Assembly (NCBI GenBank): GCA_001775055.1
Contig: MFBU01000022.1
Location: 3,278-67,277 of the forward strand
Direction: 5' to 3'
Length of the DNA: 64,000 bases
Source: Candidatus Curtissbacteria bacterium RIFCSPLOWO2_02_41_11
GTDB lineage: Bacteria; Patescibacteriota; Microgenomatia; Curtissbacterales; GWA2-41-24
The translations under genes and the position numbers were made by a program. This document shows, one piece after another, positions 16,678 through 60,330 of this stretch. Position 1 is the stretch's first letter. Each line of letters begins with the position of its first letter. A model generated the notes under the pieces. The model was not told where the DNA came from, did no database searches, and saw only the letters and a list, made by a program, of their open reading frames with translations.

Positions 16678-18873
16678 TCAATTTTTAGATGTAGAAGCGA
16701 TAGATATCGGCTTTAATAATACCTTTGAAATATTCATTGTAAGTTTCCATGTTCTAAAAATTTTTGCCGACTCAACAGAAGAAATTTTTTGACTTAAATC
16801 AGTAATTGACTTTTCTGTTTGATCAATCTCTTTTATTAGATTCATATTTTGATCAGCATGAATTTCTATTTCTTTAACGGTATCATTTAGTTTTAATTGA
16901 TGCAGAAGAAAACTTTGAAGAAAATCTTTACTGTTTTCAAAACGCTTTATTTTTTTATTTTTAAGTGTCATCATTATCTTCATGATTTTTCCTGCATACT
17001 TTTCTGGACTAAACTTTGATTTTGCAAAAGTTAATCCATTTTGCCCCATTACCTCCATCATCTTTCTATTTTTTAAGAAATATAATATTTTTTGCTTCAG
17101 GTCATTTATGTCCTCATAGTTGTAGAGGAAACCATTGTAGCCTTCTTTTATCTGCTCCAGAGCACCTCCTTTATCAGATCCGATCACCGGTTTTTTTAAA
17201 AGCATCGCCTCTACCAGTGTCCTACTAGACGCTTCACTCCTTGAACAAATCAGAAGTATGTCCGATTGATTAATATAAGGATAAGGATTTAAAACATTAT
17301 TTTCGAAATAAATTTTGTTGGTCTTTTTGGTCTTAATCAAGTTATTAAGTGAGATAAAATAAGGATCATTCTTGCTAAAGCTTCCGAGAACTAAGAGCTC
17401 GACATCGTAGCCTTCGTCAAGCAATCTCATTGTCGCTTTTATGGCCTGATCTTGTCCTTTAGACTTTGCTATAAAACCAGCAATAATAAGTTTTAGGGAC
17501 TTTTTTGATTTATACACTTGTTTGACTTTCTCTTTTAGGAGTTCTTCGGGTATTTCTATACTGTTATAAACAGTCTCTCCCCGATTGGGATCTATATAAT
17601 TTTTGAACTGATGTTGGACAGCTTTCGAATTATAAATTACCTTTTCGGATAACAGATTTATTAATCGAACTGATTCCTTCAGGGTCATATCGAAAGAGAA
17701 TCCATGATCTTTTTTGCCAAATTCACGTATGTGCCATAGGTGTGGTTTGTTCAGAAGAAAAGCGCTTAGTGCTCCCCAAGGAATAACAAGAGTATTTGTG
17801 TAAATTAAGTGGGGGTTAATTCTTTTCAATTCATCTAAATATCCGGTTATATTAATTAAGGAGTTAAAATGTCTTTCGTTGATGGAAGCTTGTCCTTTCG
17901 AAACCCACCAGCCAAAAGGAACAATATCAAAAGATACGGCTTTATTTTTTATCCTATCTACGAATGGGCCATTACTTGGAATAACTACATGTGATAAAGC
18001 ATCAAATTTTTTAATTTGATTTAATAAGTCTAGATGACTTCTCACAGCTCCTCCTAAGTTTGCGCGGTGAGAAAAATAAGTGACAAAAAGTGATTTTTGT
18101 TTAGGAATACAAAGCAAGTTTGCATAAGAATTCTCATTTATAAACTCTTGCCAAGAATATTTATTGTTGGTTAAGCGGTAATATTTTCTTTTTAGCTCAT
18201 CTATTAGGAAAATTTCAAAGCCAAGACTTTCAAGTTTTTTTAATAGATCATCGGGTTGAAAGCCTGCATTTTTTTGCATCTTAGGATTAAACTCTACAAG
18301 CATAGAGAGATTTTTGTTATTTTTTAAAGTAGTTTTTAAACCTTCAAGTACCGCCATTTCATGACCTTCGATGTCGATTTTTATAAAATCAATTTTTTTC
18401 TTTTTAAGAATCTGGTCTGGGGGATAACTTTTAATCTTTATTATTTTCTTTGTCTTGGTTAGAGGATGTTCGTAAAATCCGGCAGAATCCGATGCCTCTG
18501 TTAAATTAAAATCTTTTACTTCTTTTTTGTTGGAAGCTGCGAAATTGTATAGTTTGGCATTTTTAACATTATTAAGTTTGATATTCTTTTTGAGTACTTC
18601 AAAATTTTTCTTGACGGGCTCTATGGCAATTATTTTTGTATTTTTCTGGGAATGGTAAGCAAGTAGGGAGTAATAGCCAAAATGGGCGCCAAGATCGACA
18701 AAAGTAGAATTAGGTTTTAGATAATTCTTGATTATTTCAGATGAGAATGGTTCGTATTTATTTTTAACATAATGTTGAACAAAACGGGGGTAAATGTACA
18801 TCGAAAAATTCTCCAAATTTATTTTTTTGATTTTTTTTAAATTGTATTCGTTCTTAAACATGTCCAACTTCAT
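16678..18873 (-). CDS. Three-module protein: FkbM-type methyltransferase, GT4 glycosyltransferase, and C-terminal coiled coil (WbdD/WsaE-like terminator architecture)
   Basis: The N-terminal segment 'DLGAHFGYYSLLAY...IIAIEPVKKNFEVLKKNI' matches the FkbM family. The middle segment 'CSRSEASSRTLVEAMLLKKPVIGSDKGGALEQIKEGYNGFL' is a GT4 E-x7-E motif. The C-terminal ~70 aa have heptad-repeat character. Confidence 0.6.
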   Translation of the reverse strand: MKLDMFKNEYNLKKIKKINLENFSMYIYPRFVQHYVKNKYEPFSSEIIKNYLKPNSTFVDLGAHFGYYSLLAYHSQKNTKIIAIEPVKKNFEVLKKNIKLNNVKNAKLYNFAASNKKEVKDFNLTEASDSAGFYEHPLTKTKKIIKIKSYPPDQILKKKKIDFIKIDIEGHEMAVLEGLKTTLKNNKNLSMLVEFNPKMQKNAGFQPDDLLKKLESLGFEIFLIDELKRKYYRLTNNKYSWQEFINENSYANLLCIPKQKSLFVTYFSHRANLGGAVRSHLDLLNQIKKFDALSHVVIPSNGPFVDRIKNKAVSFDIVPFGWWVSKGQASINERHFNSLINITGYLDELKRINPHLIYTNTLVIPWGALSAFLLNKPHLWHIREFGKKDHGFSFDMTLKESVRLINLLSEKVIYNSKAVQHQFKNYIDPNRGETVYNSIEIPEELLKEKVKQVYKSKKSLKLIIAGFIAKSKGQDQAIKATMRLLDEGYDVELLVLGSFSKNDPYFISLNNLIKTKKTNKIYFENNVLNPYPYINQSDILLICSRSEASSRTLVEAMLLKKPVIGSDKGGALEQIKEGYNGFLYNYEDINDLKQKILYFLKNRKMMEVMGQNGLTFAKSKFSPEKYAGKIMKIMMTLKNKKIKRFENSKDFLQSFLLHQLKLNDTVKEIEIHADQNMNLIKEIDQTEKSITDLSQKISSVESAKIFRTWKLTMNISKVLLKPISIASTSKN

Positions 18874-19591
18874 TTTGAAAATTTTTGTAATAGGCGATTA
18901 TTTTATCTATTTTGTCAATTTCCGCCATCCTACCAGATTTTAAGACGATCCCTTTTTGGCAGACTTGACCGATTGTTTCCAAATTGTGACTTACTAAAAT
19001 AATTGTTTTTTCTGAATTGAAAAATTCTTTCATCTTGCTTAAAGACTTTTGTTTAAACTCCGCATCTCCTACGGCCAATACTTCATCAAGAAGTAAAATA
19101 TCCCACTCTAAGTGGATTGAAACAGAAAAAGCAAGTCTTATAAACATTCCGGATGAGTAGTGTTTTACCGGCGTATCCAGGAATTTTTTAATCCCGGAAA
19201 ACTCGACAATCTCATCAAATCTCTTTGTAATTTCTCTTGCTTCCATACCTAAGATTGAGCCTGAAAGATAAATATTATCTTTTCCAGTTAATTCCGGGTG
19301 GAATCCAGCCCCAAGTCCTAAAAGTGCAGTTACCTTACCGTTTACAATCACGGTACCTTTTGTCGGCGTGGTAATACCCGCAATTGTCTGAAGTAAAGTC
19401 GATTTACCGGATCCGTTAGGCCCTATGATGCCAATTTTTTCTCCTTCTTTCACCTGAAGATTAATTCCTTTAAGAGCCAAAAACTCCTTTTGGTATCGAT
19501 CTGAAAAGAAAAGTGGAATCGCGTGGGTCAATGTCCTTGGTTGACCGATTCTATATTTTTTCCAAAGGTTTTTTAGTTCAATAGCGTACAT
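18854..19591 (-). CDS. wzt: ABC transporter ATP-binding protein of glycan exporters (Wzt/TagH-type, short form without a C-terminal carbohydrate-binding domain)
   Basis: Walker A 'GPNGSGKSTL', the LSGGM-like signature 'YSSGMFIRLAF', and Walker B 'ILLLDEVLAVGD' are all present. The gene is adjacent to an ABC-2 permease. Confidence 0.8.
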   Translation of the reverse strand: MYAIELKNLWKKYRIGQPRTLTHAIPLFFSDRYQKEFLALKGINLQVKEGEKIGIIGPNGSGKSTLLQTIAGITTPTKGTVIVNGKVTALLGLGAGFHPELTGKDNIYLSGSILGMEAREITKRFDEIVEFSGIKKFLDTPVKHYSSGMFIRLAFSVSIHLEWDILLLDEVLAVGDAEFKQKSLSKMKEFFNSEKTIILVSHNLETIGQVCQKGIVLKSGRMAEIDKIDKIIAYYKNFQNEVGHV

Positions 19592-27297: not shown

Positions 27298-27741
27298 TTA
27301 CGAACGGGCTACAATAAAAATACCAAAAAGCATCACTACTATACCAACTATTCTTATAAAAGAAACATCCTCATTTAAAAATTTTATAGAACCAATGGTA
27401 GTAAACATAAAAACTATCGTTGCAAAAATTGGATAAGCCCGTGAGAGGTCATTAAATGTTAATACACGAAGCCAAATTAAAAAAGAAAGGCCATAAAGGC
27501 CAAGTCCTGCCAGGATAAATGGATTTGCCGCAGCTTTCGATATTTCAAGAAAAAGTTTTGTCAAGTTTCCACTCAAACCACCAAATGATAAAACCCCTTT
27601 TTTAAGAAGAATATTTGCCGTCACATTAAAAGTAACGCTTGTCAGTAAAAGAGCGTAAAAGTTTTGGAAAAAACTCATGGTGTGATCATACCATTGACAG
27701 CTGACAACTGACAACTGACCCTTCGATGGACTCAGGGTCAT
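27298..27741 (-). CDS. SMR/EamA-like 4-TM membrane protein (ArnE/ArnF-like lipid-linked sugar flippase subunit candidate). The start is uncertain (Met at 27741 or internal Met at ~27678).
   Basis: The core is about 125 aa with 4 hydrophobic helices. It lies immediately upstream of the DPM1-like GT2. The first 21 codons of the track ORF run through a GC-rich heptamer-repeat element. Confidence 0.4.
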   Translation of the reverse strand: MTLSPSKGQLSVVSCQWYDHTMSFFQNFYALLLTSVTFNVTANILLKKGVLSFGGLSGNLTKLFLEISKAAANPFILAGLGLYGLSFLIWLRVLTFNDLSRAYPIFATIVFMFTTIGSIKFLNEDVSFIRIVGIVVMLFGIFIVARS

Positions 27742-27780
27742 CCTGAGCTTGTCGAATGGATGACAACTGACATTTGCTGA
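27695..27780. repeat. GC-rich element with heptamer tandem repeats (CTGACAA-type x4) flanking a unique ~40-nt core. A shortened copy lies inside the CDS at 32255-32287.
   Basis: The sequence 'ttgacagctgacaactgacaactgaccc ... atgacaactgacatttg' is seen directly. The nearly identical 'ttgacaactgacaactgaccactgacatttg' occurs at 32255-32287. Confidence 0.5.
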
Positions 27781-27819
27781 ATCATTTTGATATTTGAAAT
27801 TTAATATTTGATATTGGCT

Positions 27820-30258: not shown

Positions 30259-31023
30259 CTAGCGGCGTTCCCAATATTTGACATACGCGTAGAAGTGGTG
30301 TGCCGCCGAAAATAAAGCCCAGACAAACCCCCTAAAACCATCAACATAACCCCGATGTCTAACAAAAATATCGAAAAAAGTGACAAGTGGCTTTAGAACC
30401 ATGTAGTAAAAAACCGGCCAAGGCCCCCTACCCGGATCTATCTCTCTAAGCTTTTGAGCAGTTTGATCTGTATAACGGTCGGCTCGATAAAGGTATCTGG
30501 CAAATGAGGGATCGGCCATGTGAAGAATGTCGTTTTTTAGATACCCTACTTCCCCATCAATTGCAACCTGTTCATGAACACTAACTTCGGGAAGCCTGCC
30601 TTTGCCTCGTCTAAAAAGCCTAATCACACTATCAGGATAAGCTCCGCCCTTTGTTAAATAACCGCCTAAAAACCAATTGCGACGATTGATCCAAAAACCG
30701 TTCTCTTTGGGGTTTTTAGAGATAATTCCTTTGATCTCACCGACTAATTCTTTACTGACCCTTTCATCGGCATCCATTAGAAAAATCCAGTCGCTAGTGC
30801 AATTATCTATAGCTAAATTTTTATTAATGTGAAACATTGGTTTATTAGTTGTTTTAATAATTTTTGCACCCAGATTCTCTGCCAGTTCTCTGGTTCTGTC
30901 TGTTGATGACCCGTCAGCTACCACTATCTCATCGGCAAAATTTTTTAAAGACTCGATACAATCAACAATATTTTCCTCCTCATTAAATGTTGCCAGTGCA
31001 GCTGAAATTTTTATCTTTTTCAT
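30259..31023 (-). CDS. GT2-family glycosyltransferase (WaaE/KdtX-like subfamily); paralog of 51411-52172 and 56118-57023
   Basis: The motif 'ISAALATFNEEENIVDCIESLKNFADEIVVADGSSTDRT...MDADER' is present. The shared C-terminal 'GG.YPD...RLFRRGKG' motif links the three paralogs. Confidence 0.65.
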   Translation of the reverse strand: MKKIKISAALATFNEEENIVDCIESLKNFADEIVVADGSSTDRTRELAENLGAKIIKTTNKPMFHINKNLAIDNCTSDWIFLMDADERVSKELVGEIKGIISKNPKENGFWINRRNWFLGGYLTKGGAYPDSVIRLFRRGKGRLPEVSVHEQVAIDGEVGYLKNDILHMADPSFARYLYRADRYTDQTAQKLREIDPGRGPWPVFYYMVLKPLVTFFDIFVRHRGYVDGFRGFVWALFSAAHHFYAYVKYWERR

Positions 31024-32621
31024 TTTGGATGACCTATTTTAATCGCTTCTTTTCCGTTAGGATAATAAATTGTTTCAATGACTTCAAAGCCGCCGGGGAA
31101 ATTTCCGCTATCGGCAATAAAAAGCTCACTGGGAGTTGTCGGCGGTTTGGTGTCGAAGTAATATTTGTCAAAGTTTTGCCTCGTACCGCTTTGTTGATAA
31201 CTCCTGGGGTCATACTTAGTATTAAAAAGCCAGAACACGTACGCCTGTTCGATTGAATGATCGACATTAATTTTAGTGTATTGATTTTTGATTTTCTCGG
31301 ATTCTAGAACAGCTTCCTTATATCCATACTGCCAAAAATCTGCCTTGTCGTATGGATAATGTCTCCAGTAGTTATGAAGGTAAACTATGATTGATACACC
31401 AATCCATAAGATATAAAAATATTGAACAGGTTTTTTAAGTAAAAACTCCATAGAAAAAATTGAAACCAGCGCATAGGCACTAATGATCTGAAGCGCTGGG
31501 TCCATCGGTAGAGACCGGTTACCATGCGGATTAGGAACAGCCGGTGTTGCAGGAATTGGGGCAATCAGAAGCCATGCAAGAAGAAAGGCTGAAGTTTTAT
31601 TGCGATTTCTAACAAGCAAAAAGATACCATATAAAACTAGAGGAAATTGAAAAAGATAGACCATCCCTATATTTCCAATATGATGCCTGAAATTATCATC
31701 GCCTTTAGTGAAAAGAAAATTAAAATCAAAATGAGAAAGATAATTGCCAAACCATGTTTGGCCAATAACAAATCTTCTGTTATGAATATATTTGCCGAGC
31801 TTCGATCCCCTTTCCTGATCTTCTAGAATAAATTTTATTGATTTTTCGATATCCTCAAGTCTTGGTCTGCCAGTGGTAACTTCAAATCTTTGTAAGATTA
31901 CTTTTGGCGGTATTAATATTACAAGCGGCAGTCCGATTAGAATAGTAATGATGATAAAAATACCTAGATACCTTTTAGAAACGGTAAGTATCTCTTTTCT
32001 CCAAATAAAAAATGTTGCTATAAAAAGTAGCGGTACAAAAATCCGCTCTGAATGATAGGTATAAGTAGAAATCCCTAAAAATATGCCGCTTACTATTAAC
32101 CATCTTCTACTGGCTAACCCATATAAAAATGCAGTAATGGCTGCGACTGCAAAAAAAAGGCCAACCGTAGCCTCAAAACCGACTCGAGAAAATTGCAAGT
32201 GCCAAGGCGAAATGGCCAACATTAGCATAGATAGAAGAGCGATTGACTCACTCTTGACAACTGACAACTGACCACTGACATTTGACTTTTCAAAGATTTT
32301 TCTGGCTAAAAAATACATTGCTGGAACTGTCAAAAAACCAAAAAATGCGGAAGGAAGTCTTGCGGCAAATGGGGTTAGACCAAAAATTGCCACTGTCACT
32401 ACATTCAAATACATGTATAGAGGGGGTTTATAATCATCAAAGGAGCGATTGGTAATCGGCAAAAAGTTGCCGTATTCATCCCGTCCAGTTTTAAGAATCG
32501 AGTAGGCATTGTAAGCATTACTGTTTTCATCCCAATCCAAACTTAGTGGAATTTCTCCTAATTTATAAAATCTCAAAATAAAAGCCAAAACTAAAATCGC
32601 CCAAAAGATTTTTTTTGTCAT
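31020..32621 (-). CDS. ArnT/PMT-like GT-C glycosyltransferase, tandem paralog 1 of 5
   Basis: There are about 12 TM helices. The segment 'LDWDENSNAYNAYSILKTGRDEYGNFLPI' is the loop-1 DE motif. 'ISPWHLQFSRVGFEA' is conserved across the paralogs. The C-terminal soluble domain is about 120 aa. Confidence 0.65.
   Translation of the reverse strand: MTKKIFWAILVLAFILRFYKLGEIPLSLDWDENSNAYNAYSILKTGRDEYGNFLPITNRSFDDYKPPLYMYLNVVTVAIFGLTPFAARLPSAFFGFLTVPAMYFLARKIFEKSNVSGQLSVVKSESIALLSMLMLAISPWHLQFSRVGFEATVGLFFAVAAITAFLYGLASRRWLIVSGIFLGISTYTYHSERIFVPLLFIATFFIWRKEILTVSKRYLGIFIIITILIGLPLVILIPPKVILQRFEVTTGRPRLEDIEKSIKFILEDQERGSKLGKYIHNRRFVIGQTWFGNYLSHFDFNFLFTKGDDNFRHHIGNIGMVYLFQFPLVLYGIFLLVRNRNKTSAFLLAWLLIAPIPATPAVPNPHGNRSLPMDPALQIISAYALVSIFSMEFLLKKPVQYFYILWIGVSIIVYLHNYWRHYPYDKADFWQYGYKEAVLESEKIKNQYTKINVDHSIEQAYVFWLFNTKYDPRSYQQSGTRQNFDKYYFDTKPPTTPSELFIADSGNFPGGFEVIETIYYPNGKEAIKIGHPK
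32255..32287. repeat. In-frame heptamer tandem repeat (CTGACAA-type x4-5) inside ArnT-like paralog 1, encoding SGQLSVVK
   Basis: 'ttgacaactgacaactgaccactgacatttg' is seen directly. It is related to 27695-27780 and 59217-59236. Confidence 0.5.
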
Positions 32622-34399
32622 GGTAATTTGACCTGACTGACATCATAGATTTCAAAAATTGTGTCGCCTCGCAAATCATCTATAGTGTAGATTGGCGGTT
32701 TAGGAAACTCGATTTCTTTTTCCCCCGCAACAATTAACGTTTTTGTCGGTAGACGATCGATCCCTGGTACTGAGTCGACAAAATCGTATTTTCCGATGCT
32801 ATCAAGTATTACCCAACCGTCCTGGGATTTATGTCTTTGGGCATTTTGAATAAAGTAAGCCGGGTTAACCTTTGCAAAATAGAGATACTGCATATATTGA
32901 TGACCATAGTCAATTTTTCTTGAAATGACAATCTTGTCGTATTCCTGTTCTTTTGAGGCAAGATAGTTAAAAAGCTCCTTGTACCCGAATCTTTGAAAAC
33001 GGCTGGTAAAATATGGCTCACTGTAAAACATATCAGGTATCAACTTAACTACTGATCCTAAAATAGTGATAGTCAATACGATAATAAAAATATTTTTAAA
33101 GAATTTTGACTTTAATGAAGCTACAAAAGTATAAATGCCAAAGGCAACAATGATCTCAAGCGATGGCATAATCAGATTAATTCTTCCATAATTACCAGAT
33201 CCGGCAAAGGAAGCGCCTATTGGCACAAAAAGCAGCCAAGGTATTAATATTTTTAGTGCTTGATTTTTTTGCTTTATAAGTAAAAATATCCCCAAAATTA
33301 AAAATGGTAACTCAAACAAGTAAACTACACTTCTGGTGCTAAATGACTGGAAACCAGATGGATTTGCTTTATCAAAATAAGTCTTAAAAGATAAATTCCC
33401 AGCATAATTGCTAATATAAGTTGAAGCAAAAGTTAAAAATTTATTGTAGGTTAATGTACAAAAAATATTTGGCAGATGTTCTTTACAAACACCGCGCCTC
33501 TCATTTATATCAGCATTGATTCCAGCTCGAGCCACCCCGGAAATAAAACTCTCCTGAAGAAATCTCGACTGACCCTTAAAGGTTAGTACTGTAGGCAGGA
33601 GAGGTAAAAACAATATAAAGGCCAAAATCAAATTCTTGGCTAAATATACTTTTGGTATTTTAAACTGCTGTCTAAACGAGTAGATCACTACTGATATAAA
33701 CAGTGGCAAAAAAACCCAAGCAGATCGATAAACATAAAAAGAAATAACAAAACCTAAAAAAGAAAAGGTAATAAATTTTTTATTTTTTAAACCTACTAAG
33801 AAAAAGTAAGTTGAGATGGTTATAAAGAAAACTAATAAATCAGACTCAAAAGCATTTCTTGATGCCGCTATATGCCAGGGTGAAATTGCCAGAAGAAATG
33901 CAGCTACGAGGGCTATGACTTCGTTGCGGGTCCTGTCAGTCGTTTCCTTCCCGCCAGTGCTCGCTTTGTGCAAGTTCGTTATTTTACTTTGATTCCATAT
34001 AGAAGCTCCGCGCTGTCGGGAACCTTCCCACAACTGCCACCCGCTCCTGTCTTCGAATAGTTTTTTCGTCAATAAATAAGTAGCAAAGACTGCAAAAACT
34101 CCAAACAAGGCTGATGGGAATCGCGTTGCAAATTCATTCATACCGAAGAAAAATTGAGATATAGCTGTGAGGTAAAGATAGACTACAAGCTTCCAGTCAC
34201 CAAAACTTTCGAAAGCAGGAAAGGGTAAAAACCTGCCCCACTCATCCATGCCGGTTTTTAAAATCGAATAGGCATTATAGCCAAAAGCAGCTTCGTCATC
34301 GTTAAATCCAACTGGAATACTTGCCAGATTTATAAAACGAAGAAGAATTGCTACTGTAATTATCGAAATTATGATTAAATTATTTTTGAGATACTTCAT
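32618..34399 (-). CDS. ArnT/PMT-like GT-C glycosyltransferase, tandem paralog 2 of 5 (carries a 45-aa GC-rich insert)
   Basis: The motifs 'GFNDDEAAFGYNAYSILKTGMDEWGRFLP' and 'ISPWHIAASRNAFES' are present. An insert 'RSGWQLWEGSRQRGASIWNQSKITNLHKASTGGKETTDRTRNE' lies between the conserved blocks. Confidence 0.65.
   Translation of the reverse strand: MKYLKNNLIIISIITVAILLRFINLASIPVGFNDDEAAFGYNAYSILKTGMDEWGRFLPFPAFESFGDWKLVVYLYLTAISQFFFGMNEFATRFPSALFGVFAVFATYLLTKKLFEDRSGWQLWEGSRQRGASIWNQSKITNLHKASTGGKETTDRTRNEVIALVAAFLLAISPWHIAASRNAFESDLLVFFITISTYFFLVGLKNKKFITFSFLGFVISFYVYRSAWVFLPLFISVVIYSFRQQFKIPKVYLAKNLILAFILFLPLLPTVLTFKGQSRFLQESFISGVARAGINADINERRGVCKEHLPNIFCTLTYNKFLTFASTYISNYAGNLSFKTYFDKANPSGFQSFSTRSVVYLFELPFLILGIFLLIKQKNQALKILIPWLLFVPIGASFAGSGNYGRINLIMPSLEIIVAFGIYTFVASLKSKFFKNIFIIVLTITILGSVVKLIPDMFYSEPYFTSRFQRFGYKELFNYLASKEQEYDKIVISRKIDYGHQYMQYLYFAKVNPAYFIQNAQRHKSQDGWVILDSIGKYDFVDSVPGIDRLPTKTLIVAGEKEIEFPKPPIYTIDDLRGDTIFEIYDVSQVKLP
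33905..34060. repeat. GC-rich ~150-nt island embedded in-frame in an AT-rich CDS (insert of paralog 2)
   Basis: There is a local composition shift (e.g. 'gcgggtcctgtcagtcgtttccttcccgccagtgctcgc', 'gctccgcgctgtcgggaaccttcccacaactgccacccgctcc'). The flanking sequence is otherwise AT-rich. Confidence 0.4.
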
Positions 34400-34401
34400 T
34401 A

Positions 34402-35910
34402 TTAAGGAACTACTTCATAAAACCGCATAAAACTATTACCTCTACCCTTTTGGTATTTGCCAATTAATTTAAGACGAGGGTTACCCGGGTCATCAGGAAG
34501 GTTTTGGTTTTCGTTAAAGACAAAAAAAGTCTTTTTAACTTTGGCAGCTTCCAAAACCTGCTGTGGAATATCCCTAACTGGCCAGAATCCGGTAATCTGG
34601 ATATTTGGATTACTATAAAAGTAAATTTGAATAGCAAAAGGTAAAAGCCCAAAGGTGCCTTCAGTTCCAACATAGACTGGTTGGCTTTTTGTTTCATGTT
34701 TTAGGATTGCCACAATTTCCTCCACACCATAACCGGCCGGCCAGTCATTTAAGTATTGACCAAGATCTGCATCGGCAATATTGGCCTTTGGAGGTTCTGT
34801 TAGTAATCTATATGAATTGATAGCCGGAAAAACAAAAATGATCGCAAAAATCACCCACAAATATTTCAAGTAATTTTTCCACCTAATTAAATTTATTACA
34901 CCAAAAGATACTAGGATAACTATATAAGGGAAATAAAAAAGCATAAAACGAGGATATAAAACTTTATTAAAAATACTCTCTGCCAGAAACGGCGCCAAAG
35001 CATAAACCGAAAGCAAAATAATTACCCCCTTTCGCCTAATTAAACCCCATGTAATAACCAAAACGGCAATAATTGTCAGCGGCCAGCCATTATATTGAAC
35101 AAACCATGAAATTAAGGCATGAAGATTGCTGGGCAATTGAATAAATGGGTTATTTATAATTTCGTTAAAAGATCTGATAAATTCAGATTCTTTACGCTCA
35201 ATCATATAAAACAGTGGCGAGAGTCTTAAACTATTGTAAATTACCTGTGAGAGCAAAAAAGTAACAACTGAAAAGATAACCCATTTAAATAATCTAAAAC
35301 TGTAATCTCTACTCTTGAAATTAAAAACCAATAGAGAAAAAGGGAGTAGATACAAAAAAAGGATGCCTGAAGATTTAGTAATCATTGTTAGTCCAATAGC
35401 AAAACTGGCAAGCATGGCAGTTTCAAATCTTGGATCTTTGGCCATCTTTATCGAAAAGTAAACTGCCCAAATACCCAACATGGTAAGCAGAGAATCAAAA
35501 AGGGCCATTCGGTCATACAGGAGCGTGAAGGGTAAAATGACATATAAAAAGGCCGCAAGTTTGGCCACTTTCTCAGAAAATAACAGTCTGGCTAAGAAAT
35601 AGATTCCTACCAGAGAACCAAACCCTGCAAAAACAGAAACGAGTCTTCCGGCTATTAACGGATCAGGGATAAATTGCTGAAAAATTGCTGCAATCCAAAT
35701 GAATAAAGGCTGCTTTCCATCCTCCAGAGAAATAAATCTGTTAGCAGGATCATGGAGTGCTACTTGTGCCCAATAAGTATAAATTGCCTCATCAGTAAAT
35801 ATTGGAACTATTTTTAAATTGATAAGTCTTGTAGCAAAATAAAGTACACTAAAGCTAGACCAAAGGATCAAAGATTGCAGTTGGATTAAAACTACGGGTT
35901 TAGGCTTCAT
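34402..35910 (-). CDS. ArnT-like GT-C glycosyltransferase (PMT_2-type, GT39/GT83-like)
   Basis: The motif 'FTDEAIYTYWAQV' follows TM1, and the protein has about 13 TM helices. It is distinct from the five-paralog family and is inserted between paralogs 2 and 3. Confidence 0.5.
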   Translation of the reverse strand: MKPKPVVLIQLQSLILWSSFSVLYFATRLINLKIVPIFTDEAIYTYWAQVALHDPANRFISLEDGKQPLFIWIAAIFQQFIPDPLIAGRLVSVFAGFGSLVGIYFLARLLFSEKVAKLAAFLYVILPFTLLYDRMALFDSLLTMLGIWAVYFSIKMAKDPRFETAMLASFAIGLTMITKSSGILFLYLLPFSLLVFNFKSRDYSFRLFKWVIFSVVTFLLSQVIYNSLRLSPLFYMIERKESEFIRSFNEIINNPFIQLPSNLHALISWFVQYNGWPLTIIAVLVITWGLIRRKGVIILLSVYALAPFLAESIFNKVLYPRFMLFYFPYIVILVSFGVINLIRWKNYLKYLWVIFAIIFVFPAINSYRLLTEPPKANIADADLGQYLNDWPAGYGVEEIVAILKHETKSQPVYVGTEGTFGLLPFAIQIYFYSNPNIQITGFWPVRDIPQQVLEAAKVKKTFFVFNENQNLPDDPGNPRLKLIGKYQKGRGNSFMRFYEVVP

Positions 35911-37622
35911 CTAATCTCTAATTCTCCGACATCGAATACACTAGTTCCGTCAAGCCTTGAGATTGTCTTAAGTTTTTGAACCGAAGGTGGGAGCGCATTG
36001 GGTGAAGTAACATACAACACCTTACCGGAAACCGAAGTTTCATTTAAACTGTCTGTGAAGCGTAATTTACCAAAACCGTCAACGTCTATAAAAAAGAATT
36101 TGTCTCTTGTAATTTGAGCGCTTTTCCAATACTCCCGAGGATCAAATTGCATATATAATAAAAAGTAAATGTAAGGTCTTCCTTGAGCTTTAGTCACTAC
36201 CACATAATCAACGTCATTGTATCTTGGTTTAATAAATTCTACCGCTTCTTTGTATCCAAACTGCCACTCTCCTGAATAATTTCTCGGCCAGTGAACATAA
36301 TACATATGCAGATAAAATAAAAAGTTAAAAGTAAAAAGTAAAAAGTAAAAAATTATAAAAAGTTTTTTATATCTAATTACTCGATAAAGATAAAATAAGC
36401 CAAAAGCGGCAAGTATTTGAAAAGTAGGCAAGATATGAATCATCCTGAGCGCATGGGGAGTTTCTCGGGCAGTTGCCGGTCCAAACGGTGAAATAAGAAG
36501 CCAACCAATAATTAAAAAGCGATATTTTTGTTTGGTAGCAAATAAAAAGTAGATACCAGCAAGAATAAATAGTAGATCAACATAATAAAGTTCGCCTACT
36601 TCCTGAACAGAAAGCCTTGGATTAACATCGCCTTTTGTAAAAAGGAACCTCGGATTGAATGAATCAAAATAATGGGTGAGATATTCATATGAATAGAATA
36701 GACGCCGGTTATGAATAATGTCTGACCACCAAGAAAAATTGTCTCTTGCGCGATACCGAATTGAGTCATTAATCGGTTGCAGATCTTTAAAAATAGTTAC
36801 TTCATCAAATCTCAGTCTGCCTTCAATAGTTTGGGTTGTAAAAATAAAAAGAGGCCAAAATAAAATACTAGTAATTAAGGCTGTTATTAAAACAATTTTG
36901 ATTTGGGCAAAAACCTGTTTTCGAAATTGAATCGCTAGTACTAAAAGAATAAAAGGGACAAACAAGCGTTGGCCTGTAAAAGTATACATCCCGGCAAGAA
37001 ACGAAAGAACAGACGGCAAAATCCATAATGGATTATCTTGAGCAAATTTCAGAAACAGCCAAATACCAAGAACTGAGAAAAAAAGACCCAGATTTGCTTC
37101 AAACGCGCCTCTTGAAAATTGAAGATGCCAAGGGGAAATAGCCAGGAAAAAGGCGGATAGTAAAGCAATTGTTTCAGAAGTACTAAAGGTACGAGAAGTA
37201 CCAGAAGTACGAGAGGTTAAGTTCAGAGATTGCTTTTCGTACCTTTCATACTTTTCGTACTTGTGATACTTTTCTACAAAGAGTTTTTTGGCCAGAAAAT
37301 ATGTCAATAAAACTGTCAAAACACCAAAAAAAGCAGATGGAAATCTAATTGTAAATTCAGTTAGGCCAAAGGCGGCAATTGAAGGCACTGTCGCATAGAT
37401 ATAGCCTGGTGGTTTGTAATCACCGAATGCTGCAAAGTTGGTAATTGGTAAAAATTTACCGTGTTCATCATGACCAGTTTTTAAAATTGAGTAGGCATTA
37501 TAACCAAGTGATGCCTCGTCCCAATAAAGAGAAGGTGGAACAGATCCGAGTTTATAAAACCTTAATACTGCCGCAATGAAAATAATAACGATAAGTATAT
37601 ATTTACTTAATTTTTTGGGCAT
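35907..37622 (-). CDS. ArnT/PMT-like GT-C glycosyltransferase, tandem paralog 3 of 5 (carries a repeat-hairpin insert)
   Basis: The motifs 'LYWDEASLGYNAYSILKTGHDEHGKFLPI' and 'ISPWHLQFSRGAFEA' are present. An insert 'KYHKYEKYERYEKQSLNLTSRTSGTSRTFSTSE' lies between the conserved blocks. Confidence 0.65.
   Translation of the reverse strand: MPKKLSKYILIVIIFIAAVLRFYKLGSVPPSLYWDEASLGYNAYSILKTGHDEHGKFLPITNFAAFGDYKPPGYIYATVPSIAAFGLTEFTIRFPSAFFGVLTVLLTYFLAKKLFVEKYHKYEKYERYEKQSLNLTSRTSGTSRTFSTSETIALLSAFFLAISPWHLQFSRGAFEANLGLFFSVLGIWLFLKFAQDNPLWILPSVLSFLAGMYTFTGQRLFVPFILLVLAIQFRKQVFAQIKIVLITALITSILFWPLFIFTTQTIEGRLRFDEVTIFKDLQPINDSIRYRARDNFSWWSDIIHNRRLFYSYEYLTHYFDSFNPRFLFTKGDVNPRLSVQEVGELYYVDLLFILAGIYFLFATKQKYRFLIIGWLLISPFGPATARETPHALRMIHILPTFQILAAFGLFYLYRVIRYKKLFIIFYFLLFTFNFLFYLHMYYVHWPRNYSGEWQFGYKEAVEFIKPRYNDVDYVVVTKAQGRPYIYFLLYMQFDPREYWKSAQITRDKFFFIDVDGFGKLRFTDSLNETSVSGKVLYVTSPNALPPSVQKLKTISRLDGTSVFDVGELEIR
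37176..37274. repeat. Inverted pair of 9-nt tandem repeats (GTACGAGAA-type arms) forming a ~100-nt imperfect hairpin, in-frame within paralog 3
   Basis: The left arm is 'ggtacgagaagtaccagaagtacgagag'. The right arm, 'cttttcgtacctttcatacttttcgtacttgtgatacttttc', is its approximate reverse complement. Confidence 0.5.
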
Positions 37623-46432: not shown

Positions 46433-47387
46433 ATTTATTTAAGACCTCCCTGTCAGATAGTGAATAAGCAGAGCTTGCGGTCCTCGTCTGCGCCTGCGGG
46501 TCTAAGTGCATAGTGAATAGTGAATAGTCAAAAATCAATTTTGGGAGCTGAATAATTGCCCAGAAAAAGCCAGCAAAGAAGGCAAGATCGAAAGTTGCCA
46601 TTGATTTGGCAAGATGATACGGTAACCAAAAAAGATGTTGGAGAAGCCAAAATGGGTCAGTAATGTTTTTCCAAACAAAAAGAAATTGGTTTTTATAAGA
46701 AATGGTCTTAATAAAAAACTCGGATCTGGATTTTTGAATTACCCCCTCTTGGTGGAAATGATTTACCTTTGACATTGGCTCAAACAAGCATCTATAACCC
46801 ATCCGCCATGCCCTAAATGAGAGGTCTATATCTTCCCAGTAAAAAGGGGCAAAGTTGGTGTCAAAACCGCCAAGTTCTAAAAATTTTCTTTTATCGAAAA
46901 GGCCTGATCCGCCAGAAACCCAAAGGGTTTCAGCTGATCTTGATGGTAAAGCAAAATGATTAACAAAACCCTTTTTAAAAATAGCTCCTCCTCTACCCCT
47001 TATCACAATCTTGCCATTTTCGTGGCTATGATCGGCAAGGCCAACTGCGAAAATCCGCTGGCTGGCTGATTCATTTTTGAAATGAGAAAGAGCAGGTGGC
47101 AAGAAATTTGCTTGCGGCGAAACATCGGAATTCAAAAGCAGCACCAGATCGCCATTAGCTTTTCTTACTCCCTCATTAACCGCGTGGGCAAACCCCTTAT
47201 TTTTTGCAAGTTGAATTACTTTTATCTGCCTAAAATTCTTTTGGAGAAAATCAACCGAATCGTCGCCTGATGCATCATCAACAATAATTATTTCACAATC
47301 AGCGCAATTTTTAATTACGTTGGGTAGATTCTTGAATAATAGTTGCCTACCGTTATAATTTGGGATTATTACTGATATTTTCGCCAT
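46419..47387 (-). CDS. GT2-family glycosyltransferase with a GC-rich C-terminal tail
   Basis: The motif 'ISVIIPNYNGRQLLFKNLPNVIKNCADCEIIIVDDASGDDS' is present. The last ~25 codons are encoded by the GC-rich region 46440-46530. Confidence 0.7.
   Translation of the reverse strand: MAKISVIIPNYNGRQLLFKNLPNVIKNCADCEIIIVDDASGDDSVDFLQKNFRQIKVIQLAKNKGFAHAVNEGVRKANGDLVLLLNSDVSPQANFLPPALSHFKNESASQRIFAVGLADHSHENGKIVIRGRGGAIFKKGFVNHFALPSRSAETLWVSGGSGLFDKRKFLELGGFDTNFAPFYWEDIDLSFRAWRMGYRCLFEPMSKVNHFHQEGVIQKSRSEFFIKTISYKNQFLFVWKNITDPFWLLQHLFWLPYHLAKSMATFDLAFFAGFFWAIIQLPKLIFDYSLFTMHLDPQAQTRTASSAYSLSDREVLNKFAKS
46451..46529. repeat. GC-rich segment plus ATAGTGAAT heptamer-type tandem (x3) at the 3' end of a GT2 gene, overlapping the start of the next gene
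   Basis: 'tgtcagatagtgaataagcagagcttgcggtcctcgtctgcgcctgcgggtctaagtgcatagtgaatagtgaatagtc' is seen directly. Confidence 0.4.
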
Positions 47388-57023: not shown

Positions 57024-58492
57024 GATTTGGAAAGCAAAGAGCCAATGATCATTTTAGCATCTTCCACCAGATGCTTTTTAAAAATAGCGAGTGAAAGCAC
57101 AAAATAAACTATTGCCCCAAAAAGGATAATTAAAATTAGACTAGGTATACCTTGCACAAAATTTTGCTGAATTGTTCTTATTAAGAGAAACATAACTATT
57201 GATGTTAAAAGCGGGCCAAAAATACTCCTTCCGACAGAAATTGGAATTTCCTTTTTAACAATATAGATCGTAATAAGTGATGTTGATGCAACAATAGCAG
57301 ATGCAATACCTACACCGACAAAACCAAAATTTAAAACTAGAGGAATCGTCAAAATCCATGTCGAAGCTGTCCAGAAAAGCATCAAATTTAAAACTATTTT
57401 GGAACGGCCAGTAGCAAAAAGTGCATTAGTAAAAGTTGTCGATATTGACGAAAAAATACTGTTAACTGCAAACAGGTACAGCAAAGGCAAAGCTGGCTCC
57501 CATTTTTGATATTTGGGAATTACCTCGATAAGTTTTGGAGCAATAGCAGTTATCCCAAAGACAGAAGGATAAACAAGATATGTAACAAAAAATAGAGATT
57601 TTTCGATGGCTTTGCCCAACTCTTGTTTATGTTCTTGGAGTCTTGAGTAAGCAGGGAAAGTAACTTTGTTAACACTATCCATAAAAAATCTAAGCGGTAA
57701 AAAGGCGAATTTTTGAGACCAACCGATGTAACCGATTTGACCGAAGGTAAGAATCTTGCCTAGAACAACAACCAGAAGATCATCTTTCAAAAGGGCAATA
57801 ATGCTATTTAACTGAAATGGTATTCCGAAGGATGTAAGTTTTTTGGCAATGTTTTTATCGAAACTAAAAGATGGTTTCCACGGGGCAAGAATATAAATGA
57901 GCATTAGACCGGCAATACCCCTAGCCAGCACAGCCCAGGTAAAACTTGTTATCCCAAATCCTAAAATAGCCAAGACAACAGCTGTTGTATAAAAAACAAT
58001 GTTTTCGGCAACTTGAGGAATAACAAGCTTTGTAAAATTTAATCCTCTCTCAAGAATAATGGAAGGGATTGTTTTTAAAGAAGAAAGCAAGAGAGAAAAA
58101 ATCAAGATCCTAACCAACCATAAACCTTGATTGTCAAGATTGTAAAAATCGGTTATGGTTTTTGAAAAAATCAACCCTAATAAAACAAGAATCGCAACAA
58201 TAGTTTGCTGGATTGTAAAGGTGGTAGACAAGTCTTTTTGGTTTAACTCTTCTTTTTTTTGAATAAGAGCGGCGGCAAGTCCAATGTCAGAAAAATAAAC
58301 GAAAATGTTAATTAAGGCTGAAACAAAAACGTAAATTCCATAAGTAGGCTCATCCAGTATAATTGTAAGAACAAAAACTGCTATGTAAGAGAAAATCTGA
58401 ATAAAGAAAGTTCTAAGAGTAAAAGTCACAACTCCCGATATTGCCTTCTTCTTGATTAACTCTAAGTCTAGTGAATATCGCGGATTTTCCAT
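57020..58492 (-). CDS. Wzx/PST-family (MOP superfamily) polysaccharide flippase
   Basis: The protein is 490 aa with about 12-14 TM helices. Its N-terminus 'KKKAISGVVTFTLRTFFIQIFSYIAVFVLTIIL' is typical of O-unit flippases. Confidence 0.6.
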   Translation of the reverse strand: MENPRYSLDLELIKKKAISGVVTFTLRTFFIQIFSYIAVFVLTIILDEPTYGIYVFVSALINIFVYFSDIGLAAALIQKKEELNQKDLSTTFTIQQTIVAILVLLGLIFSKTITDFYNLDNQGLWLVRILIFSLLLSSLKTIPSIILERGLNFTKLVIPQVAENIVFYTTAVVLAILGFGITSFTWAVLARGIAGLMLIYILAPWKPSFSFDKNIAKKLTSFGIPFQLNSIIALLKDDLLVVVLGKILTFGQIGYIGWSQKFAFLPLRFFMDSVNKVTFPAYSRLQEHKQELGKAIEKSLFFVTYLVYPSVFGITAIAPKLIEVIPKYQKWEPALPLLYLFAVNSIFSSISTTFTNALFATGRSKIVLNLMLFWTASTWILTIPLVLNFGFVGVGIASAIVASTSLITIYIVKKEIPISVGRSIFGPLLTSIVMFLLIRTIQQNFVQGIPSLILIILFGAIVYFVLSLAIFKKHLVEDAKMIIGSLLSKS

Positions 58493-60330
58493 TGTCTGAT
58501 TATAAAGAAAAATAAAATTAGTAAAGATGTTAGACTTATTATATTGCCGGTAAACCTGTCGAAGGTATCTTTAAATTGTATTTCAACTCTATGAACTCCT
58601 TCGGGGATATTTAAGGTAATTAATTTAAGACGGTTATTGTCAGCTATTGTAAATTTTTTACCATCCACTTTAGCATTCCAGCCCGGAAAGTTAAAAACAT
58701 TAACCCTAACCTGTAATGGATCTTTAGCGTTAACAATAAAGTTGATCTTGGAAGGTGTCGAATTTAAACTGTTGATTTGAGCCAAACCGGATAATATTTG
58801 CACCTCCTCGGTCGGTATCTCTGACTTTTTGATATTCACGACATTGGTGCCTAACTCGCTTTTTTTTAGTTCAACTCCTTTCGGAATATATTCAAAGGAA
58901 GATTGAGAAATATCCCAGTTAATAATCTCTTCTGAAGTAGCAATTTCATCTGTTAAATCTGGGCGATATGTCTGTGGTTTAAAAAGTTTAAAGTTCGGGA
59001 TAGCAAGAAGGACTACAAGAATTAACGAAGCTATCAGTCTTAATATCGGCAATCTCAAAAGATAGACAAGTGCACCTGCTAGGATTGATGAGAAGAGTGA
59101 TGTGAATATTAGAAAACGCCAAGGGAATTGGGTATAGGCAAGAGGCGGTATCAAATCCCAAATCGGCTTTGAGTAAAAAGTGGTCATAAAGGCACTGAAT
59201 AGAAAAAGGACAAAGAAGACAATTGACAATTGACCCGCCTTCGCTAAAGCTTCGGCGGGCGAGCCATTGGCTCCTGAGAGTTTGAGTCTAATTAAATGAG
59301 CAATTGCCAGAACCGATGCTGCAATTGATGTGAAAACGTGCAGTTTGCCGATTTTGAAGGAAATCCCGTCGGTAAGACCAGCAGCAGAACCGCCAAAACC
59401 CCAAGGCCAGTTCCAAAGTTGTTGTGGGTAAATAAAGTGAATGTTGTAATTTGCGAGATTAACTAAAAGTAACTGATCAACAATAGTGTATTTTTTTTCA
59501 AGAAGGGCTGGTAGCCAAAAGAATGCGGAAAGTCCGAAAGAATAAACAATTGACGATAAACAATTGACGATAAACAATTTCTTATTTTCTGCTTTCCAAA
59601 TCAGAAATAGTAAATAAACTGGCAAGATGAGCATAAAGGGAAGAAATATCAGATTATGGGTAACCATCAGAAGTGCTAAAAAAATTGCTGATATGTAAAT
59701 GTAGAAAGCTTTTTCTGTCCTCTTTAGCCTATACAGTGACCAAAGGATTAGTGGTAACCAGACAAAAGAAAATGACTCACTCAATGCCCCTCTGACATAA
59801 ATGTCTAGGGCCCTGTAAGGTACTAAAAGATAAAAAACACTAGCTACAACCGCTGAATATTTATCCCAAAATTCCTTTGCTAGTATGTACATTGCGAAAC
59901 CTGAAGCAATAATTGATGCAAAAAAAACTAGTTTGATGGAATTTATGAAACCAGAACCTATTAGATGGAATAGTTCTCCAAGCATATAAACAAAAGGCGG
60001 ATAGAAAACAAACAATGGATAACCAAATCCGAATCCTAAACCATCAACCCAGCGGACAGGAAATTGACCTGATTTTAAAGCCTCGTCAAACAAAAAAAGC
60101 CTGGCTATTTGTTGGTCGTCATGAATGACATAAAGTCCAGGTTTTAAAAGAGGCAAAGAGATGACTATTGAAGCAAGAAGAATAACTAAGATTGCAACAA
60201 AATTTTTAATCATTGGGAATATAAATGTAAACTTGCTTATTAAATCCTTTCCTGAAATCAACAAGTAATTCACCCTTATTATAGTAGATAGAAAGCGTTG
60301 GATCATGGTAGATTGCCCAAATGGCAGCAT
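58468..60330 (-). CDS. Large polytopic membrane protein, GT-C-like (same class as 41483-43234). The real start is probably the internal Met at ~60213.
   Basis: The 'YVIHDDQQIARLFLFDEAL' HD motif follows TM1. There are about 13 TM helices plus a C-terminal extracytoplasmic domain and a final TM helix. The gene carries three in-frame repeat elements. Confidence 0.4.
   Translation of the reverse strand: MLPFGQSTMIQRFLSTIIRVNYLLISGKDLISKFTFIFPMIKNFVAILVILLASIVISLPLLKPGLYVIHDDQQIARLFLFDEALKSGQFPVRWVDGLGFGFGYPLFVFYPPFVYMLGELFHLIGSGFINSIKLVFFASIIASGFAMYILAKEFWDKYSAVVASVFYLLVPYRALDIYVRGALSESFSFVWLPLILWSLYRLKRTEKAFYIYISAIFLALLMVTHNLIFLPFMLILPVYLLFLIWKAENKKLFIVNCLSSIVYSFGLSAFFWLPALLEKKYTIVDQLLLVNLANYNIHFIYPQQLWNWPWGFGGSAAGLTDGISFKIGKLHVFTSIAASVLAIAHLIRLKLSGANGSPAEALAKAGQLSIVFFVLFLFSAFMTTFYSKPIWDLIPPLAYTQFPWRFLIFTSLFSSILAGALVYLLRLPILRLIASLILVVLLAIPNFKLFKPQTYRPDLTDEIATSEEIINWDISQSSFEYIPKGVELKKSELGTNVVNIKKSEIPTEEVQILSGLAQINSLNSTPSKINFIVNAKDPLQVRVNVFNFPGWNAKVDGKKFTIADNNRLKLITLNIPEGVHRVEIQFKDTFDRFTGNIISLTSLLILFFFIIRQWKIRDIH
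59217..59259. repeat. Heptamer tandem (GACAATT x2 plus GACCC) fused to a GC-rich CCCGCC-N15-GGCGGG palindrome, in-frame
   Basis: 'agacaattgacaattgacccgccttcgctaaagcttcggcgggcgagcc' is seen directly. It is related to 27695, 32255 and 39311. Confidence 0.5.
59544..59579. repeat. Tandem 14-nt repeat (AAACAATTGACGAT x2.6), in-frame
   Basis: 'aaacaattgacgataaacaattgacgataaacaatt' is seen directly. It shares the CAATTGAC core with the 59217 heptamers. Confidence 0.45.

Follow-up and report, generated by a model that had tools for sequence, protein, structure and literature searches.

TGACAAC-type heptanucleotide arrays with a nested 41-nt hairpin in a glycosylation gene cluster of a Candidatus Curtissbacteria genome

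Introduction

According to the summary of Mrazek et al. 2007 given in PMC4679880, no long simple repeat is more common in bacteria than the heptamer, and where the unit length cannot be divided by three, repeats were reported mostly outside genes. Here, we describe short arrays of the heptamer TGACAAC, and a 41-nt imperfect hairpin nested in one of them, in a 64,000-nt stretch of the genome of Candidatus Curtissbacteria bacterium RIFCSPLOWO2_02_41_11 (GenBank assembly GCA_001775055.1, contig MFBU01000022.1, positions 3,278 to 67,277), hereafter called the window. The source lineage belongs to the Microgenomates of the candidate phyla radiation (CPR); homologues of the encoded proteins bear the name Candidatus Curtissbacteria, and one protein is 100% identical to a protein of strain RIFCSPLOWO2_02_41_11. 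The window represents a large glycosylation cluster with ~10 GT-C-type paralogues, and the genes of the region are encoded on the minus strand.

Judged by analogy, the closest described architecture is that of the short tandemly repeated repetitive sequences of heterocystous cyanobacteria (STRRs; compare also long simple sequence repeats, LSSRs) with nested small dispersed repeats (SDRs), the latter as reportedly built. STRRs in their classical description are mainly intergenic, those inside the RNase P RNA gene being an exception to this rule. SDRs are said to have been described by Elhai et al. in 2008 for Nostoc punctiforme as tiny, highly repeated and hairpin-capable elements of 21–27 nt, which are nested in heptamer arrays, occur as filled and empty sites and have no transposase of their own. 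The locus studied here resembles STRRs/LSSRs in its head-to-tail 7-nt units, its compound arrays in which differing units stand side by side (AAATATC next to TGACAAC), its occurrence at many loci (43 strong arrays, see below) and the unit TGACAAC itself. It differs by its host, a CPR bacterium with a small genome, by its short and degenerate tracts, and by the location of most copies in frame inside long genes. Likewise, the hairpin resembles SDRs, as these are reportedly built, in being nested in a heptamer array and in having filled as well as empty sites, but it measures 41 nt, occurs in ~5 contexts and is carried in frame in proteins.

A sister unit is provided by the TAACTGA repeats of marine Beggiatoaceae, cyanobacteria and Bacteroidetes (MacGregor 2015, PMC4679880). 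Their forward strand carries stops in three frames, while the reverse strand is open and occasionally found in open reading frames (ORFs) at the peripheries of proteins; a regulatory role has been proposed, and the vector behind the cross-phylum distribution is not known (PMC4679880). The two units compare as CTGATAA with CTGACAA and their translations as LSVISYQ with LSVVSCQ, and the strand logic is the same. However, the copies in Beggiatoaceae are mostly forward and placed right before start codons, whereas those described here are all reverse and mostly coding. Moreover, nested hairpins are not described for the Beggiatoaceae repeats (PMC4679880).

Palindromic DNA inside proteins is known from the Rickettsia palindromic elements (RPEs), selfish elements lying in frame in unrelated genes, where they are apparently tolerated (PMC10969869). 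The hairpin shares with them its palindromic nature and its carriage in frame in proteins; RPEs differ by their length of ~100–150 bp, the lack of heptamer arrays and the CGTC tag (PMC3733652). REP and REPIN elements are similar in forming short imperfect hairpins beside a fixed tetranucleotide, and some REPs reside in genes (PMC3116915, PMC3733652). By the criterion of PMC3733652 the hairpin is nevertheless different, since it lacks a GTAG/CGTC tag, has the ends CCTT... and ...TGGA and is flanked by TGAC/GTCA. Furthermore, it has no doublet structure, no RAYT was seen in the window and its copy number appears low. The 7-bp repeats of Haemophilus influenzae hmw (PMC8262952) also combine a 7-nt unit with a position in or near surface-related genes, but contingency loci contain long, perfect and strain-polymorphic tracts, whereas the tracts of the window are short, imperfect and invariant. 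Thus, the present repeats are distinguished from the known ones by their CPR host, by the fact that most copies are coding and occupy, in frame, fixed positions of GT-C-type proteins, and by the 41-nt, GTCA-flanked hairpin. As detailed below, we favour, with a probability of about 0.7, a reading in which fixed heptamer arrays harbour a nested mobile hairpin and are read through in tolerant loops of GT-C proteins, with no on/off switch involved.

Results

A 41-nt hairpin nested in heptamer arrays

An earlier reading of the window (the original prediction) had proposed a family of heptamer repeats at three sites, explained either as phase-variable loci or as small mobile repeats that tolerate insertion in frame. 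Tandem Repeats Finder (TRF), which was used for array calls, lists all three sites, and the family proved to be real: CTGACAACTGACAA with at most two mismatches matches 7 times in the window as compared to 0.30 expected matches, a count reached by 0 of 100 shuffles, and exact tandems with a period of 7 and a minimum of 2.4 units number 5 as against 0.3 expected. The main elements are the following:

27694..27719, plus strand: left part of the site-1 array, TTGACAG CTGACAA CTGACAA CTGAC, reading as GTTGTCA units on the gene strand; intergenic
27720..27760, plus strand: 41-nt imperfect hairpin CCTTCGATGGACTCAGGGTCATCCTGAGCTTGTCGAATGGA, nested in the site-1 array with TGAC on either side
27761..27776, plus strand: right part of the site-1 array, TGACAA CTGACAT TTG, with the terminus CTGACATTTG common to site 2
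32254..32284, plus strand: site-2 array, TTGACAA CTGACAA CTGACC ACTGACATTTG, in frame as SNVSGQLSVVKS in the GT-C gene 31020..32621
59218..59234, plus strand: site-3 array, GACAATT x2.4, with TCAATTG as the unit in gene direction; read in frame as GQLSIV

Site 1 as a whole (27694–27776) is an intergenic array of TGACAAC-type heptamers that is split by the hairpin; TRF reports its left part as TGACAAC x3.6 at 27695–27719. Site 2, with 3.7 units according to TRF, corresponds to site 1 minus one unit and minus the palindrome, both termini being common to the two sites, and is indeed the shortened in-frame copy in a GT-C paralogue that had been predicted. Matches in TRF amount to 89–94% at sites 1 and 2, and the tracts overall comprise 2.4–3.7 imperfect units. 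The predicted translation GQLSVV was recovered at sites 1 and 2, and the reading frames of sites 2 and 3 are those of their genes. Neither the hairpin at 27720–27760 nor the GC-rich hairpins at site 3 described below had featured in the original prediction.

The two hairpin arms of 18 nt are 72% complementary, and folding of the hairpin as DNA is modest (z -2.2 and -3.2). Its presence adds 41 + 4 = 45 nt, that is 15 codons. All 41 of its positions are identical between the intergenic site 1 and a coding loop of the related locus L140, where the hairpin lies in frame inside the array of a GT-C protein (EKSNVSG-HPFDKLRMTLSPSKG-QWSVVKSES), while the GT-C orthologue itself is only ~61% identical. 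In these two filled sites the arrangement is ..GT(T/G)GTCA, 41 nt, GTCA GT(T/G)GTCA.., and empty sites without exactly that block are provided by site 2 of the window, the L004 loop and the L127 spacer. A further ~78-nt insert is nested in the middle of the hairpin in L127/L131 and interrupts it. Searching 1.84 billion representative proteins with the 30-aa translation of site 1 returned two more hairpin hosts and no others, namely a pilin-like N-terminus (KKLVSC-HPFDKLRMTLSLSKG-QLSVVNC) and a signal-peptide region (LSIVKC-HPFDKLRMTLSPPKG-QLLIVS). The junctions C/HPFDKLRMTLS..KG/Q are common to both, with differing variants of the flanking unit; the DNA junctions of these hosts (P0243 and P0244) were deduced from the peptides. 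A homologue search with the 40-aa translation of site 1 gave no candidate, the hairpin core had 0 matches in viral contigs, and the hairpin matched no Rfam family; an Rfam scan of the whole window yielded nothing at gathering score, and only noise around site 1 at E<=10.

Since the block recurs in arrays of unrelated contexts, the hairpin is a separate small element that has entered at least five different arrays, always at GTCA. Of the two explanations offered originally, small mobile repeats tolerating in-frame insertion is the one supported, with the specification that the arrays constitute a widespread class and that the clearly mobile piece is the hairpin. Further arrays of relatives likewise contain GC-rich hairpins of other sequence, an example being found in L129 (AATTTTC x2, CCATCAAAGACGAGGCTCGCCTCTGGCGG, CAATTTTC x2). 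When arrays split by a GC-rich middle were searched for automatically under strict settings, only 3 cases were detected; imperfect arrays such as site 1 escape this search, and composite arrays were read by eye. The FDKLR motif of the hairpin translation also occurs in P0242, an unrelated GC-rich protein made of the repeats SPFDKLRATFQT and PSTSSGQR, and palindrome-derived peptides of this kind seem to be common in other phyla.

Host genes of the three sites

The original prediction had left open whether site 1 lies upstream of or within the ArnE-like gene, and only the former holds. The SMR/ArnE-like protein, which has weak matches to SMR and EamA profiles, comprises 126 aa and starts on the minus strand at the ATG 27678–27676 (JGI gene call and orthologues), and the 147-aa ORF at site 1 is merely an upstream extension of this gene. 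The site-2 host gene 31020..32621 matches PF13231 (PMT_2) at 7.5e-10, and its structural model has a GT-C fold, with Foldseek matches to AglB, STT3, ArnT, ALG9 and Pmt4. In this model, the insert SNVSGQLSVVKS forms the coil 110–118 between predicted helices 84–109 and 119–136. The coil is poorly modelled (pLDDT <50 for residues 114–119).

Site 3 was correctly placed in frame in the gene at 58468..60330, but the start of this ORF of 620 codons, which overlaps the upstream gene 60206–61639 by 125 nt, has to be revised: comparison of homologues indicates codon 40 as the true start and thus a protein of 581 aa. This protein has no Pfam match itself, while its homologues match PF10131 (PTPS_related) and some of them PF13231 (PMT_2). 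The array occupies a loop-to-helix junction of this PTPS-related membrane protein. Conservation of the frame (see below) argues that the inserts are translated, in which case the following tryptic peptides would span them:

Predicted tryptic peptide over the site-2 insert: SNVSGQLSVVK
Predicted tryptic peptide over the site-3 insert: LSGANGSPAEALAK

Heptamer arrays of related clusters lie mainly inside genes

For comparison, 80 related loci were used, representing about 1.0–1.05 Mb of Microgenomates GT-C clusters retrieved from a metagenome scan by GT-C homology. Across ~1.05 Mb, TRF at a score >=40 called 43 arrays of period 7, 39 of period 14 and 13 of period 21, as compared to 0, 12 and 1, respectively, in simulated sequence (a simple Markov-2 control). 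Of the 95 arrays, 89 fall within stop-free frames of 90 codons or more, which for the most part are GT-C-like genes of 500–600 codons; a few of these 89 are upstream ORF extensions like the one at site 1 and not coding. Together, the TRF counts and the in-frame share demonstrate that heptamer arrays of many units are the dominant tandem-repeat class in these loci, and that they reside chiefly inside genes. The unit has a polarity that matters in this respect: read from the sequence, TGACAAC has TGA in all three frames, whereas the GTTGTCA strand is stop-free. In the Microgenomates loci, all convincing TTGTCAG-type arrays have the stop-free strand as the gene strand.

The loop harbouring site 2 is hypervariable in 41 aligned orthologues between LAKKLF and IALLSM..ISPWHLQFS. 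Many of them have an empty loop; SNVSGQLSVVKS is found in that of the window, of P0003 and of the distant P0033, whereas others contain NSKWKMVNGNS, NLKLEIGNWKLEI, KYQFSIF.. or long inserts. These insert types are scattered across a neighbour-joining tree of the orthologues, which is rough and was used solely for this purpose. The baseline spacing across the loops of 140 paralogues amounts to 38 aa, with 59% at 37–39 aa, and 53 loops (38%) are expanded by 4–50 aa. Within the expanded loops, only lag 7 reaches 13 of 14 matches, which is the case in 13 loops, most others reaching 11–12.

Inserts of other kinds were seen in the same TM3-TM4 loop of further paralogues. The paralogue 32618..34399 (minus strand) carries an in-frame insert of ~115–140 nt at 33895–34050 (EDRSGWQLWEGSRQRGAS...KETTDRTRNEV), a long imperfect hairpin whose folding does not surpass that of shuffled sequence (z -1.05). 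P0016 and P0020, which are orthologues of the other paralogue, have related inserts, and L129 has a frameshifted copy (~3348–3641). In a third paralogue (35907..37622, minus strand), 9/18-nt repeats occupy the loop at 37176–37274 (AGAAGTACG x4.3 and CTTTTCATA x4.7, encoding EKYHKYEKYERYEK and TSRTSGTSRTFSTS), so that repeats compatible with triplets are evidently tolerated in the loop as well. Around residue 425 of the same gene there is an in-frame array AAAGTAA x5.4 (14-mer x3.1; 36313–36355), and similar arrays were noted at 46505–46528 (AGTGAAT x3.4) and 51586–51613 (14-mer x2.0). Two paralogues in L004 (4717–6345 and 10001–11626) are near-identical across the loop insert and well beyond, which suggests gene conversion or recent duplication. 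Independent insertion into both is ruled out, as the identity extends past the insert.

Tract lengths are stable among strains

The prediction of phase-variable contingency loci implies heterogeneous tract lengths, and such heterogeneity was sought in strain assemblies, all comparisons of tract length being made on consensus assemblies. None was detected at sites 1, 2 and 3. Site 2 is base-identical in three independent assemblies (99.96%, 99.99% and 97.8% identity; L001–L003), and so is site 1 in the one of the three that reaches it. The site-3 protein is encoded on 16 contigs; six further contigs (L207–L212) are identical in both the GACAATT tract and the 14-mer x2.7 tract of this gene, and twelve strain variants of the protein with 98–100% identity all have 581 aa. 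In ~158 kb of pairwise alignments of close relatives, several pairs of which are 100% identical and hence uninformative, only indels of 1, 2 and 16 nt were observed, but none of 7 nt or a multiple of 7. The unit count of the site-2 tract is retained even in L004, with 27 of 29 bases identical at a protein identity of no more than 65%. Finally, 140 of 141 GT-C loops of this type are in frame without a stop. The notion that gain or loss of a unit would cause a frameshift is correct for the coding copies, 7 not being a multiple of 3, but does not apply to site 1, which is located upstream of a -10 box.

Probable unit turnover at constant length in the site-3 gene

Two further elements lie in the site-3 gene:

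59235..59273, plus strand: GC-rich palindromes adjoining the site-3 array, CCCGCCTTCGCTAAAGCTTCGGCGGG (CCCGCC..GGCGGG) followed by GAGCCATTGGCTC; translated as SGANGSPAEALAKAG
59542..59579, plus strand: perfect 14-mer x2.7, ATAAACAATTGACG, encoding FIVNCLSSIVYSF at the start of another helix

The GC-rich palindromes are missing from most orthologues, and the site-3 hairpin alone folds no better than shuffles. The site-3 position itself, that is the junction of a basic loop into a helix, carries peptides with a 7-aa period in nearly all of 46 aligned orthologues (LSVVSCQLSVVFF, LSTVNCQLSTVFF, LPFTIYHLPFTFF, FSTLNSQFSILIF) and long GC-rich inserts in some. At this place, L205, a locus of the genome that also contains L140, carries (TTGTCAG)x4.7 as a perfect array and hence the CTGACAA unit. 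Compared with (TCAATTG)x2.4 in the window, the units are one base apart, and the difference is present in all copies. At 59542–59579, every orthologue has the same length with a different unit (IVNCLSSIV, TYHLSLITL, TSNQLLATIL, IYYLLFTIF), and more distant homologues repeat this pattern. Constant length combined with differing periodic units points to turnover of units in place. Changes of the unit probably spread along the tract by slippage or conversion, while selection maintains frame and length, and the pattern at 59542–59579 suggests that an array located in coding DNA is turned over in a concerted manner.

Site 1 provides a candidate promoter element

The spacer upstream of the SMR/ArnE-like gene holds two additional features:

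27676..27690, minus strand: extended -10-like box TG-n-TATGAT (27690–27685), followed by 6 nt and the ATG (promoter scan)
27786..27815, plus strand: second, unrelated heptamer array adjoining site 1, TTTGATA (AAATATC on the gene strand) x4.3

Read in the direction of the gene, the spacer terminates in ..GTTGTCA GTTGTCA GCTGTCA ATGG TATGAT CACACC ATG. The left part of the site-1 array thereby supplies a -35-like TTGTCA (27714–27709), and in a scan for sigma-70-like promoters TTGTCA-18-TATGAT scores 10/12, with a TG preceding the -10 box. As the ATG follows only 6 nt after the -10-like box, the transcript looks leaderless or nearly so. A layout of 2–3 NTTGTCA units, ATGGTAnnAT and ATG is also found upstream of the orthologous gene in L127, L157, L129, L138, L140, L163, L164 and L169, or, put more broadly, NTTGTCA units, TGnTAnnAT, ~6 nt and ATG. 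In L164 a different GC-rich hairpin sits between the NTTGTCA units. The units are entirely missing from the orthologous spacers of L175, L176, L147, L151 and L125. Promoter use of the site-1 units is thus plausible from the sequence. The array is self-similar and lies upstream of the -10 box, so that gain or loss of a unit would leave the promoter-proximal sequence and the -35/-10 spacing unchanged. In the closest relative, L127 (94% aa identity), the spacer measures ~50 nt and has neither the hairpin nor the AAATATC array, and the spacer of the window has therefore grown by accretion; L004 has an AAATTTC array at the place of AAATATC. A terminator role of the site-1 hairpin is ruled out by the lack of a T-run and an empty terminator scan.

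TGACAAC arrays in other phyla and in viral contigs

Exact (TGACAAC)2.6 is present in at least 120 stretches of species-representative genomes. The matches listed include Nostocales, Microcoleus, Moorena, Planctomycetota, Acidobacteriota, Bacteroidota, Calditrichia, Poribacteria, Chloroflexota and others, and cyanobacterial genera with the unit include Nostoc, Dolichospermum, Calothrix, Tolypothrix and Microcoleus. Arrays of other phyla are, among these matches, usually compound with further heptamers alongside. Among the matches listed, 82 arrays lie outside long frames; for 46 of these, a long ORF starts no more than 60 nt downstream when the array is read forward, i.e. with TGA, whereas this applies to only 3 in the reverse orientation. 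In addition, (TGACAAC)3 was found in 63 stretches of viral contigs (L213–L275, IMG/VR, e.g. IMGVR_UViG_3300043379_000009), some contigs having 3–5 arrays. Phages might be the vector for spread of the unit across phyla, or merely mirror their hosts.

Discussion

The favoured reading can be phrased as follows. The arrays would be fixed copies of a TGAC-core heptanucleotide class that also exists in cyanobacteria and many phyla. They would survive where the stop-free GTTGTCA strand is the gene strand, that is in spacers or in tolerant coils and helix ends of GT-C-type glycosyltransferases. There, they would act as landing pads for a tiny, non-autonomous 41-nt hairpin, whose insertion at GTCA adds 45 nt and thus keeps the frame, presumably with the help of a transposase acting in trans. 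On an evolutionary timescale the arrays would turn over, unit changes spreading along the tract while selection keeps frame and length, whereas on the timescale of strains they are stable. At site 1, the gene-proximal units would also provide the -35-like hexamer of a probable promoter.

Several points weigh against this reading. The hairpin is low in copy number (~5 contexts) and missing from viral contigs. No transposase was found, the window encoding glycosylation proteins only and a genome-wide search not having been made. The GTCA on both sides of the hairpin may be a 4-bp target duplication or just reflect array periodicity, the two being inseparable. Sites 1 and 2 share unit order and termini, so that en-bloc copying of the array competes with local slippage. 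As GT-C homology was the basis on which the loci were retrieved, the 'hot spot' applies to these clusters rather than to whole genomes, and consensus assemblies would miss minority length variants. The sole frameshifted loop, that of L129, has its frameshift inside a different long insert. Moreover, NTTGTCA units are conserved just upstream of the -10 box in several genomes, which suggests a function of site 1, at least in part.

This last point leads to the possibility that the GTTGTCA units are cis-elements, i.e. promoter parts (-35- or UP-like) or regulator sites, with the coding copies as by-products or internal promoters. The TTGTCA-18-TATGAT arrangement with its TG (10/12), the recurrence of 2–3 NTTGTCA units before ATGGTAnnAT and ATG in at least eight related genomes, the position of 46 of 82 listed non-coding arrays of other phyla right upstream of start codons and the regulatory role proposed for the sister unit TAACTGA (PMC4679880) all speak for it. 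However, many orthologous spacers do without the units (L175, L176, L147, L151, L125), leader arrays of other phyla are oriented the other way round than the arrays studied here, and no binding protein for the units is known. In addition, unrelated heptamers occupy the same loops in relatives, which fits tolerance better than a sequence-specific function, and we therefore consider the cis-element explanation possible, yet doubtful. Somewhat more tentative still is the idea that an unknown heptamer-specific copy or rewrite process, shared or transferred among cyanobacteria, Planctomycetota, Acidobacteriota and phages, keeps regenerating arrays at fixed GT-C-type places, where they are translated and serve for docking of mini-hairpins. 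If true, it would give CPR bacteria a route to build and remodel segments of membrane proteins.

It is unlikely that the inserts diversify an exposed GT-C loop under selection, for instance by phage or host contact. Close orthologues differ extremely in the length and the sequence of this loop, the insert is predicted to form a low-confidence coil, and, as judged by helix counting from the conserved DE loop, this coil may face outward. Yet the 7-nt periodicity at the DNA level and the nested palindromes are signs of repeat DNA rather than of selected residues, the same elements also populate spacers, and there is no variation among strains. The latter observation is likewise difficult to reconcile with simple-sequence phase variation, in which slipped-strand changes of 7-nt units would switch glycosyltransferases or tune the SMR-like promoter. 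Such a role was suggested by a unit length that is not a multiple of 3 in surface-acting host genes, and some relatives indeed possess perfect tracts of 4.7–5.7 units, one loop (L129) is frameshifted, and units differ between lineages at orthologous positions while the tracts stay periodic, indicating unit-level change over evolutionary time. But the tracts of the window contain just 2.4–3.7 imperfect units and are identical in all strain-level assemblies, ~158 kb of alignments lack a 7n indel, the twelve protein variants are of equal length, the site-2 unit count persists at 65% protein identity, 140 of 141 loops are in frame, and a unit change at site 1 would not alter the -35/-10 spacing. 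We thus abandon phase variation as very improbable. Chance matches of low complexity or an assembly artefact could be suspected in an AT-rich genome with many weak TRF repeats, but this is practically negligible considering that 0 of 100 shuffles reach the observed count, that 43 period-7 arrays face 0 simulated ones and that independent JGI and ENA assemblies contain identical tracts.

Fixed arrays with a nested mobile hairpin, in contrast, remove a wrong annotation, namely phase-variable surface glycosylation in a CPR bacterium. They also extend the cyanobacterial architecture of arrays with nested hairpins to small Microgenomates genomes, where it is located mostly in genes and apparently translated. 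About two in five GT-C paralogues have an insert in one loop, and helix starts of a second family are heptamer-coded in all orthologues, which offers a data set for the persistence and turnover of non-triplet repeats inside coding DNA. Many odd low-complexity peptides of CPR bacteria (LSVVSCQ, HPFDKLRMTLS, NWKLEIG and similar ones) would find an explanation, and attention is drawn to the unexplained fact that various phyla and phage contigs have one heptamer unit in common.

Further repeats in the related clusters

Repeats with a 21-nt unit were also encountered. The repeat TAAGCAGAGCTTTTCTACGAA, in up to 5.1 copies, lies at the 3' end of a PIG-V-like gene in L138 (14588–14695), L199 (5643–5709) and L004 (14511–14556), and L191 contains a GC-rich 21-mer x5.1 at 18827–18934.

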